NCBI RefSeq assembly: GCF_003334815.1
Contig: NZ_QOWO01000053.1
Direction: 5' to 3' (one strand)
Source: Escherichia coli
GTDB taxonomy: Bacteria > Pseudomonadota > Gammaproteobacteria > Enterobacterales > Enterobacteriaceae
DNA length: 19,069 nucleotides
Within the stretch, counting starts at the first letter, position 1; every line of letters begins with the position of its first letter. Positions 12,001 through 15,000 of the stretch are shown here, one piece after another. The position numbers were made by a program.

Positions 12001-15000
12001 GAATTGATAATTTTTCGTACAGACTTGTTTTCCGTGGGTATGTAATAACTGAAAAACTCAAATCATAAGATTCCAGTCTCTTTATAAGTTTATTTATTCT
12101 TGCTGGAGTAAAGAGATGTGAATGCATGACAATGATTTCATCATTATTAATTGCTTTTGATATCAGAGAAAGCAATACATCCCAGTGTTTCCTCATTGAC
12201 TTCGGGCAACGTGTGTCAGCATAGGGGCTAAGATGTATAGTTGATTTCTTGCTTCCCTTTTTCTTCTTCACAAAGAATGTGAAGTCGTATTTAGATGCAG
12301 ACCTTACAATAAGAAGTACACATCTGAAAAGTAGTGGGAAAATGCAAATCACAACCACCACACAGAAATATAACATATAAGGCAATGATAAGTTGTCAGT
12401 GTATGGATAACGTAAGTATTGCCATGGGGTAGTGATGTACAGACAAAGCGTACACCAAAGCAACCATAGATATAATGGTACGTTATTATTTTTCATATTA
12501 GTTGACTTTTAATACTGTTTTCTATCACCACATTTTTATGTGTCTCATTTGGCACTTCGTACTGTTGGAAATATTGTTGGCGGCGGATGCGTGTCTGTTC
12601 ACTGCTTTCTATTAACACCGCCATGGCGATTGCAAAGTATATGCAAATCAGGAAAATCCAGAACGCGTTTGGTATCTTCCAAAAAAGTGTGGACAGTTTG
12701 TTATGTGGTGAAACTAAAATCGGAGAAAGGATTCCACAGACAATCACAATCGCGATGGTTAATTTAACTAAAAAGAACACGGCCCCCACCTGTTTTGACG
12801 AGGTCTTTTGTTTTTGTTGTGTTTACGACAGCCAGTCCTGTAGATGCTGATGGCGGGAGCTGCTGCCCTTGTGCCAGCGGCAGTGGCTGCCGGGAGCACG
12901 CTCCAGTCGGAACAGAAATCGGTTGTCGCGTAGTACCACCACGAGACAGTTATCCGGCGTGCAGAAACGTCGGGCAAGCTCATCGGGGTCTGTCGGTGTT
13001 TTCGTTGAAAACAGCCTGCGTTTGCAGTGTGCGTCGACGACCAGTATTTGCAGTCGTCCGGGATGTTGCTGTGGCATCAAAGACTCCTTCCGGAACGGGA
13101 AAAGAAGCAGCTGTACCGTCATAACTGCACGTACCGGTTGCGAAAAAACGGCACAAGCGAGTAGTGACAGAAAGAATGTCGGAAACGGCAGGAAGGGCGG
13201 TACAGGCTGCGAAGACGGGAAACGGGTTGTGTTGGGAATTAACGCACGTGAGGTGTGATGAGAACGACGCGCTTTTCGCCAGCTCCGTCTCCGGTGAATC
13301 CATTCACGACAAGGGACTGTTCCGGTCTGAGAGAAATGCTTTGTTCAACAGTCTGTTTTCGTTTCTGGTCTGTGGTCGAGAGTCGCAGAGTGATATTTCC
13401 GGGCGCACCGTGAATATCCGGTGATACCTGCATTCTGACACCGGGAGAGACATCTGCAGTGAAGGTATCCGGACCTACGGACGTTACCAGTGATTCAACA
13501 CAGGGCGTATTCTGTATCATCCCGTGGAGCGTTTCAGGTGTCAGCGTCAGGCTGCCATTAAAAAATGCACTGCGTGAAATACTCCCCTGAGCACCGGCAA
13601 ACAGGTCCGGATGGCGCTCATTAAGAAGGCTTCCGTATTTTTCCGCCAGGCAGATTGGGTTGCTGGCCGTTGTGTCTGTTCGCACGGTATCGACCGTGAA
13701 TGTCACCTGCGGGTGATGTTCCCTGTGGCCTGTGCAGCCGGACAGCAGTGCGGCGGCTATCGTCATCCAGAGTAGTGGTTGTTTTTTCATGCTGTTAATT
13801 TCCTCTCAGGGTAAAAAGAAAGACTCGCACCGTCATGTCGATGGGGGCCGCTTGCGAAAAAATGGCACAAGCGAGTAGTGACAGAAAGAATGTCGGAAAC
13901 GGCAGGAAGGGCGGTACAGGCTGCGAAGACTGGAAACGGGGTATGCCGGGGATTACACATCCTCAGTGTAATGTGATAGTTGTCTGCTCCTGTGTTGCAC
14001 CCCAGACATCTTCTGGCAGGCTGGGCAGCCCGATAAATAGGGTGTGAAAGAGGGTTTCTCTGCGTTCGATCCCGAATTGATGTTCGTATCCTCTCACCAC
14101 CTGAAATCCTTCGTCGGAGAATATTAACTCTGCCGTTTCCAGAAGCTGCATAGTTTTGCGGTGTAGTGGAGTGATCAGCTGCAACGTAACTGGTGCCCTC
14201 ATATCGCCTGTCGGTAGAAAACACTCTTCGGTGCGACTTAGTTGTAGCAGATGACGTTTCCCGGAACAGGCCCGTTCAATGGATTCATTGAACACCCTCT
14301 CAGGCCATGGGCAGACATATGTGCGCCAGCCTGCTTTCTGTAATTTACCCAGTGCAGCCCGAAAACGAAACAACGGACATTCCCCGACAGTGGCAGAGCT
14401 GAGAAAGAGCGTATTCAGCGTTCCGATGATGGGAATATTGCGATCTTTTTCGGTCAATGCTTTTAACGCCATGATTTCGCCAGGGAGACTACGGAACTCA
14501 GGATGTCTGCTGGCACCAGAAAGCCATTCAAGCAGGTAATGCCGTAATCCGGTTTCACTGGTTATATTGTGGTTTTCCTGTGCCGTTTTCAGGGCATTCA
14601 GTGCACACCAGAGCAACTGGCGCACGGGATGTTCTGTCGTGGTCATGCGAATGTCCTACTGTGAGATGAAAAGAAGACCGGTATCCGCTCTCTCCGCCAC
14701 ACGTGATGGCACGGGCCGGCCTTTGATAAAACGAATCAATACTCTGGGGTGAAGCCTTTTATTTCTTTCGCCATTAAGAAATACACGATTCCATCAAAAG
14801 ACAGGGGGAGTCCATGGTGGGGATGGCTTCGTGCAGGCTTCACTCCAGAATATTCTCTGAATTGAAAAAAGCCCGGCCCGAAGGCCGGGAAATACTGGCT
14901 ATGGGATGTTTACAAGGCGCTCCATAAAGCCGTGATGTTCGGCATTTGATACCAGTTCCAGGAGCAGGGATATCCTCGACTCAGGCTGGAGAGTATTTTC

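Follow-up and report, generated by a model that had tools for sequence, protein, structure and literature searches.

A putative secretin-derived lipoprotein encoded at the border of the pil cluster in IncI-complex plasmids

Locus and General Features of the Lipoprotein

A stretch of 19,069 nucleotides (nt) from the Escherichia coli contig NZ_QOWO01000053.1 (assembly GCF_003334815.1), hereafter the window, was analyzed with a focus on a gene encoding a 183-amino-acid (aa) lipoprotein. The window represents the tra/pil region of an IncI1-complex plasmid, and the lipoprotein gene is located between traC and pilI. The genes follow each other on the minus strand in the order traB, traC, the 183-aa open reading frame (ORF), pilI, pilJ, pilK, pilL, pilM, pilN, pilO and onwards (Table 1). 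Conjugative plasmids of the IncI complex, for example E. fergusonii pRHB26-C03_2, are 100% identical to the window over a 2-kb stretch around the gene, and this stretch was matched by 1,440 plasmid records. The RefSeq entry for the product (WP_000744646.1) is annotated as a 'hypothetical protein'. PilN (560 aa) is encoded 3.2 kb away and, as read from its sequence, also carries a lipoprotein signal.

Table 1. Coordinates of the features analyzed in the window.
Feature	Position	Strand	Basis or remark
183-aa lipoprotein coding sequence	13239–13790	−	ATG start; ORF list, translation, annotation of identical plasmids, dN/dS
Signal peptide and lipobox	13734–13790	−	Cys19 is the predicted acylated residue
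Family-specific N-terminal part, residues 20–89	13524–13733	−	Invariant DTVRTD and ERHP motifs, Cys47; predicted strand-helix-strand-helix
Secretin-core-like region, residues 90–167	13290–13523	−	Aligned with PilN 411–514, gate 2 deleted
Last strand EKRVVLITPHVR	13242–13277	−	Counterpart of the terminal secretin strand (PilN STLVIIITPTF, BfpB TVTVICITPRII)
Downstream repeat copy	13134–13241		Overlaps the lipoprotein stop codon; upstream of pilI
Upstream repeat copy	13848–13955		Begins 7 nt past the traC stop codon; ends ~55 nt before the lipoprotein start codon
pilN, type IVb thin-pilus secretin lipoprotein	8374–10056	−	NCBIfam TIGR02520, 482 bits, E 1.3e-144
pilI, downstream neighbour, first gene of the pil cluster	12823–13077	−	RefSeq annotation transferred from matching plasmid
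traC, regulatory gene, upstream neighbour	13963–14646	−	Annotation of identical plasmids
traB, RfaH/NusG-like	14899–15453	−	Weak RfaH equivalog match, E 5e-11, under the cut-off

The N-terminus of the protein, MKKQPLLWMTIAAALLSGC, contains the lipobox LLSGC with Cys19 and a threonine at position +2. This fits the pattern [LVI][ASTVI][GAS]C of bacterial lipoproteins; residues L16, S17, G18 and C19 are invariant across the family, and weak matches to Pfam LPAM_1 were obtained for 4 of its 12 members. According to the Lol +2 rule, Thr at this position would direct the mature protein (164 residues) to the outer membrane. The C-terminus reads ...RPEQSLVVNGFTGDGAGEKRVVLITPHVR, with the pattern QSLVVNGF...KRVVLITPHVR, and R174, I178, T179, P180 and H181 are invariant in the family. 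The C-terminus of PilN reads ...GQSLVVTGF...(30 residues)...STLVIIITPTF. The original prediction, made from the window alone, had described a lipoprotein of this length with a SLVVNGF...EKRVVLITPHV tail resembling the C-terminus of PilN 3 kb away; the ORF, the lipobox and the tail were confirmed. The resemblance was also borne out, as BLASTP aligned residues 144–180 with PilN 491–527 (24.3 bits, E 0.003 as a single comparison).

To collect the family, 1.84 billion representative proteins were searched exhaustively with a profile, in addition to a word-indexed search. The family comprises one IncI1/K-like and one IncI2-like full-length cluster (P0036, P0094), which are 43–47% identical, plus fragments, and its two invariant cysteines are Cys47 and Cys97. 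This family of the lipoprotein is small and previously undescribed, and it is confined to IncI-complex plasmids. An outlier, P0043 (metagenomic, 1105 aa, with Thr/Ser-rich tandem repeats), matched profile positions 94–182 weakly in nine stretches and was set aside as compositional-looking; these matches are probably compositional, or could reflect a shared beta-sandwich-like repeat.

The ratio of nonsynonymous to synonymous substitution rates (dN/dS) was 0.33–0.46 in every pairwise comparison with three homologues, with dS >1 between the IncI1 and IncI2 forms. Such purifying selection indicates a real coding gene, which, judging by these rates, appears to be functional but not strongly constrained.

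Similarity to the Secretin Channel Domain

In order to evaluate the relationship with secretins, the 12-sequence family alignment was compared with 13 PilN-family secretin domains using hhalign. A match with 90% probability was found (P 1.2e-6, score 47.5, 77 columns), in which residues 90–167 were aligned with PilN 411–514 (8515–8826) at 29% identity. Reversed profiles scored 8.5–12.2, and 200 shuffles of columns or 6-column blocks reached 27.6 at most. With low-threshold or global settings, the alignment remained collinear to the C-terminus (RVVLITPHV on LVIIITPTF); under relaxed settings it also extended toward the mature N-terminus, without real confidence. When the region was split, each part found its collinear PilN position alone, namely residues 85–143 with a score of 28.3 (shuffle maximum 17.2) and residues 144–183 with a score of 32.5 (shuffle maximum 16.2). 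The same region was matched by a profile of non-PilN secretins (BfpB, GspD and two PilQ, from PDB alignments) with a score of 27.9 and P 0.002. Residues 20–89 alone scored 9.9 with hhalign, which is background, and showed no likeness to secretins or to anything else. In addition, the lipoprotein and PilN were reciprocal best non-self hidden Markov model matches among the 104 stop-to-stop ORFs of the window.

Curated family searches gave a different picture. No Pfam match was found for the window protein, including no match to Secretin_N, and 2 of the 12 family members had sub-threshold matches to Secretin (PF00263; best E 0.053). NCBIfam returned 0 families for the window protein even at E 10, apart from signal-peptide matches, and no significant match to the lipoprotein was found in PHROGs, PADLOC or PDB (by sequence or by profile). 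The curated thresholds for membership in PF00263 or in the PilN family TIGR02520 were not reached. The pilotin families of Pfam and NCBIfam did not match the lipoprotein. The NCBIfam EexN entry-exclusion model did not match the window protein, and the IncI2 homologue P0036 showed only signal-peptide matches. The secretin relationship suggested by the original prediction was thus recognized by profile–profile comparison (hhalign) but not, at significance, by curated family searches. On the profile evidence, the C-terminal half of the lipoprotein is best described as a divergent relative of the secretin channel domain, probably closest to the PilN/BfpB secretins of type IVb pili.

Predicted Fold and Retained Secretin Elements

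A first AlphaFold run with 11 close homologues gave a model with a predicted local distance difference test score (pLDDT) of 48.6, and a Foldseek search with it was uninformative. Modeling of the mature protein using AlphaFold2, with family sequences only in the alignment, led to a pLDDT of 67 and a predicted template modeling score (pTM) of 0.67. In this model, a strand, two helices, a short strand and a helix are followed by a seven-strand meander. In a separate fold comparison, the top matches of the lipoprotein were secretins and generic beta proteins. Remote homology to the secretin barrel core was found at both the profile–profile and the fold level.

In BfpB, the outer barrel comprises residues 307–392 and 495–545, the inner barrel residues 393–405, 431–460 and 480–492, gate 1 residues 406–430 and gate 2 residues 461–479 (PMC12114550); the numbering of the BfpB PDB chain is offset by 17 relative to this published map. 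Residues 111–144 of the lipoprotein correspond to the inner-barrel segment 427–459 of BfpB. They are followed by a 23-residue gap (BfpB 460–482) coinciding with gate 2, and residues 145–167 correspond to BfpB 483–505, where the inner barrel runs into the outer barrel. The gate-1 region is shortened, in a part of the alignment with low confidence. A loop of ~24 residues ahead of the last strand is missing, and the last strand itself corresponds to the terminal outer-barrel strand.

The periplasmic ring domains N0/N3 were not found in the 164 mature residues (there was no Secretin_N match, and residues 20–89 matched nothing), and the gate-2 gap removes a channel-closing hairpin. Because it has no N domains and no gate 2, the lipoprotein cannot be a gated channel joined to the inner-membrane pilus machine, and since most of the features that define the secretin family are absent, it should not be filed as a secretin. 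Its lack of the large secretin body had been noted in the original prediction, and this was upheld for the N domains, gate 2 and the 24-residue loop. The closest known systems, the PilN, BfpB and TcpC secretins, have about 540 residues, and in the lipoprotein the first third of the secretin domain is also unrecognizable.

Distribution, Loss and Movement of the Gene

In the PLSDB database, 567 records encode a lipoprotein at least 60% identical, and about 1,420 records encode an IncI1-type PilN. Among the 1,440 records matching the 2-kb region, 478 cover at least 80% of the query spanning the gene. About 390 further plasmids carry a homologue of the more distant IncI2 branch. The gene was found together with transfer systems of both the MPF_I (IncI1, K) and MPF_T (IncI2) types, and the pil cluster is common to both. 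It is always located at the border of the pil cluster, and the thin pilus is the only machinery common to all carriers.

Plasmid R64 (NC_005014.1) has a single repeat copy and, just beyond it, a relic of the gene in the form of a 21-codon ORF, MKINVDDPGKKSFALITPHVR (5244–5309, minus strand). At the DNA level, this ORF aligns with the 3' end of the lipoprotein gene of the window, so the R64 lineage must once have carried the gene and later lost most of it. R64 encodes a PilN (WP_000748143.1) identical to that of gene-carrying plasmids, so PilN does not depend on the lipoprotein. Comparative genomics of R64 and pESBL-EA11 revealed no dependence of the cognate secretin on it.

In the IncK2/Z plasmid pNVI1292, the gene (7001–7546, 89.6% amino-acid identity) is located between the shufflon recombinase gene (rci) and traF, and DNA homology extends from 55 nt before the ATG to ~48 nt into the downstream repeat. 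In IncI2 plasmids, a 211-aa homologue follows two EexN lipoprotein genes and precedes a toxin–antitoxin pair, trbM, pilL and pilM. The main text of a transposon study of the IncI2 plasmid TP114 does not mention the homologue. The gene is a dispensable and often lost cassette that changes its place along the pil operon borders.

The Flanking Direct Repeat

The gene is flanked by two direct repeat copies of 108 nt with 93% identity, 714 bp apart. They share an exact core of 67 nt (13150–13216 and 13864–13930; 0 expected by chance), and the 89-column stretch with 2 mismatches within them accounts for the '89-bp' repeats of the original prediction. The first ~48 nt of the downstream copy accompany the gene in pNVI1292. 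In pESBL-EA11, the gene is absent and exactly one repeat copy is present; its half nearer pilI matches the downstream window copy, and its half nearer traC the upstream one. Such a hybrid is the expected product of recombination between the two repeats.

The search for a function of the repeat itself revealed no Rfam match and no convincing promoter or terminator. An ops-like heptamer (GGCGGTA) was seen, but on the strand opposite to the one that the RfaH-like TraB would require; none was found on the correct strand. All plasmids examined, R64 and pESBL among them, have one repeat copy ahead of pilI; given this constant position, the repeat may carry a control region of the pil operon. The only role seen for the 108-nt repeat is that of a recombination substrate.

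Relation to R64 traD and Other Neighbouring Genes

According to published work, some transferable IncI1 plasmids have no traD gene (PMC4288162, PMC2887853), and pESBL and pEC_Bactec are said to 'lack traD' (PMC4288162, PMC5801416, PMC2887853). In R64, TraD (WP_000776428.1, 188 aa) occupies the same slot directly downstream of traC as the lipoprotein gene. The identity of the two was rejected, as BLASTP found no alignment at E ≤100. Unlike the lipoprotein, R64 TraD is a PilK-like membrane protein: R64 TraD (5350–5916) and the window PilK (11903–12496) are paralogues with 32% identity over 97 residues (E 1e-11). The slot thus holds unrelated genes in R64 and in the window, which makes 'traD' an ambiguous gene name among IncI plasmids. 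The plasmid pYZLc4-1_94k carries an R64-type traD, a 92-aa ORF and the lipoprotein gene in series, so traD and the lipoprotein gene can coexist. The 92-aa ORF (1202–1480) shares 4 nt with the beginning of the lipoprotein gene, an overlap suggestive of translational coupling between the two.

TraB is a paralogue of NusG/RfaH-type antiterminators. The traB–traC interval contains an imperfect 46-nt inverted repeat (14712–14757 / 14835–14880) as well as a strong, GC-rich hairpin with a T-run behind it (14872–14889, minus strand). This arrangement looks like a terminator or attenuator within the regulatory traBC pair and is of interest because TraB is RfaH-like. Many IncI1 plasmids contain a 133-bp insertion relative to the window in the pilJ–pilI gap (match spans of 2,134 bp vs 2,001 bp; pESBL-117 1590–1757 vs window ~12789–12823).

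Discussion

Secretins are regarded as large channel subunits made of several domains, and the pilotins, the small lipoproteins known as their partners, have unrelated folds. The protein described here is a secretin-derived accessory lipoprotein and not a secretin, and it is probably not a pilotin. The original prediction had left open a secretin-derived fragment or a pilot-like accessory protein; the hhalign result favours the former, while the latter fared poorly in view of R64, which has the identical PilN without an intact gene, and of the lack of any pilotin match.

The C-terminal ~95 residues may descend from the domain of a type IVb pilus secretin pared down to a gate-less core. The strands of the inner barrel wall and the last strands of the outer barrel would have been kept. 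N0/N3, the gate-2 hairpin and the ~24-residue loop would have been lost, and the first third of the domain replaced by the family-specific module of residues 20–89. An anchor in the inner leaflet of the outer membrane is predicted for both the lipoprotein and PilN, and the lipoprotein appears to retain the laterally pairing beta-strands of a secretin protomer. With side-by-side strands retained and the same membrane leaflet shared, the most economical proposal is that of a non-essential subunit mimic or modulator at the PilN ring. It could pair with PilN protomers or multimers or form its own small ring, and may in this way modulate the assembly, stability or gating of the thin-pilus conduit. 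Because the gene is clearly dispensable, any effect is likely to be modulatory. Taken as a whole, an outer-membrane-anchored lipoprotein with a minimized, gate-less secretin core that acts as a mimic or modulator of the PilN subunit seems somewhat probable to us; its mode of action at the PilN ring is inferred.

Several observations weigh against this proposal. The family alignment is shallow (effective number of sequences, Neff, about 1.7), the AlphaFold2 model is of moderate confidence, and Pfam, NCBIfam and PDB searches by sequence or profile recognize no secretin domain at significance. The original prediction had suggested structural modeling as a check, and here the C-terminal meander was modeled, but a Foldseek search of PDB with the better model returned no secretin in the top 50. 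The gene is present in roughly a third to 40% of IncI1-type plasmids, R64 being among those without an intact copy, and truncated and frameshifted alleles occur. In addition, pNVI1292 pairs the IncI1-like lipoprotein with an IncI2-like PilN (42.6%), which means that the lipoprotein gene shows no co-variation with pilN. These distributions make PilN a doubtful candidate for a specific partner of the lipoprotein.

The secretin likeness might instead be convergent or due to chance, in which case the protein would be a beta-rich lipoprotein of the outer membrane with no relation to secretins, such as a plasmid factor of the surface- or entry-exclusion type or one that protects the envelope. The EexN genes in the IncI2 neighbourhood suggest an exclusion-like role, and the strand-turn-strand ending ...LVVxGF...VVLITP would then be a common beta-meander pattern. 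We regard this explanation as a whole as unlikely, although worth keeping in mind. That the gene is a decaying and now functionless remnant of a partly duplicated pilN is quite improbable in our view. The frequent loss of the gene, the R64 relic and the damaged alleles are in line with it, and a dN/dS of 0.33–0.46 means moderate constraint at most. However, the protein has its own signal peptide and lipobox, invariant in the family, and an N-terminal module peculiar to the family, with motifs that do not vary and, likewise, two cysteines that do not vary; full-length orthologues with identities as low as 43% (dS >1, dN/dS about 0.35) are retained in IncI1, IncK, IncK2/Z and IncI2 plasmids; and at about 29% identity to PilN, any duplication must be ancient. 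A pilotin or assembly chaperone required for targeting or multimerization of PilN in the outer membrane, which a small outer-membrane lipoprotein encoded beside the pil cluster and resembling the part of PilN that forms lateral contacts might bring to mind, is highly improbable, since R64 keeps its PilN with only the 21-codon relic, pESBL-EA11 lacks the gene and its paper counts the pil genes among the functional genes for transfer, PilN has a lipoprotein signal of its own, BfpB as a related type IVb secretin is reported to need no pilotin (PMC12114550), and no known pilotin family in Pfam or NCBIfam shows a likeness.

The known pilotins (PulS/OutS/GspS, AspS, MxiM/InvH/YscW, PilF/PilW/Tgl and TadD) share with the lipoprotein the trait of being small outer-membrane lipoproteins beside a secretin-containing machine. 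They differ in that the lipoprotein resembles the secretin barrel itself and not a pilotin fold, and its secretin is self-lipidated. Legionella DotD, TraH of IncI plasmids and Xanthomonas VirB7 with its N0 domain are lipoproteins of type IV secretion systems carrying secretin-type domains. They offer a precedent for a conjugation or secretion lipoprotein borrowing a secretin-related domain; theirs is the periplasmic N0 domain, whereas here it would be the C-terminal barrel domain.

Within the proposal of a secretin-derived mimic or modulator, a bolder possibility is a new class of secretin partner, namely a stand-alone, gate-less mimic of the secretin subunit that joins the PilN ring by insertion or stacking, or assembles into a small ring of its own beneath the outer membrane. 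This we consider tentative and on the whole unlikely. The same low expectation applies to such a partner tuning the assembly or gating of the thin-pilus channel, or pilus-specific phage sensitivity, as a movable cassette that is gained and lost. The natural presence or absence of the gene among near-identical plasmids makes an effect on liquid mating, biofilm and phage sensitivity directly testable.

For annotation, the product is labelled 'hypothetical' throughout, both in about 570 sequenced IncI-complex resistance plasmids with close homologues (at least 60% identity) and in about 390 more with the IncI2 form, and the gene may be mistaken for R64 traD, which occupies the same slot but is unrelated. 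If the proposed reading is true, a secretin barrel core can exist and be selected alone, and the lipoprotein would be a compact natural tool for studying the pairing of secretin protomers.
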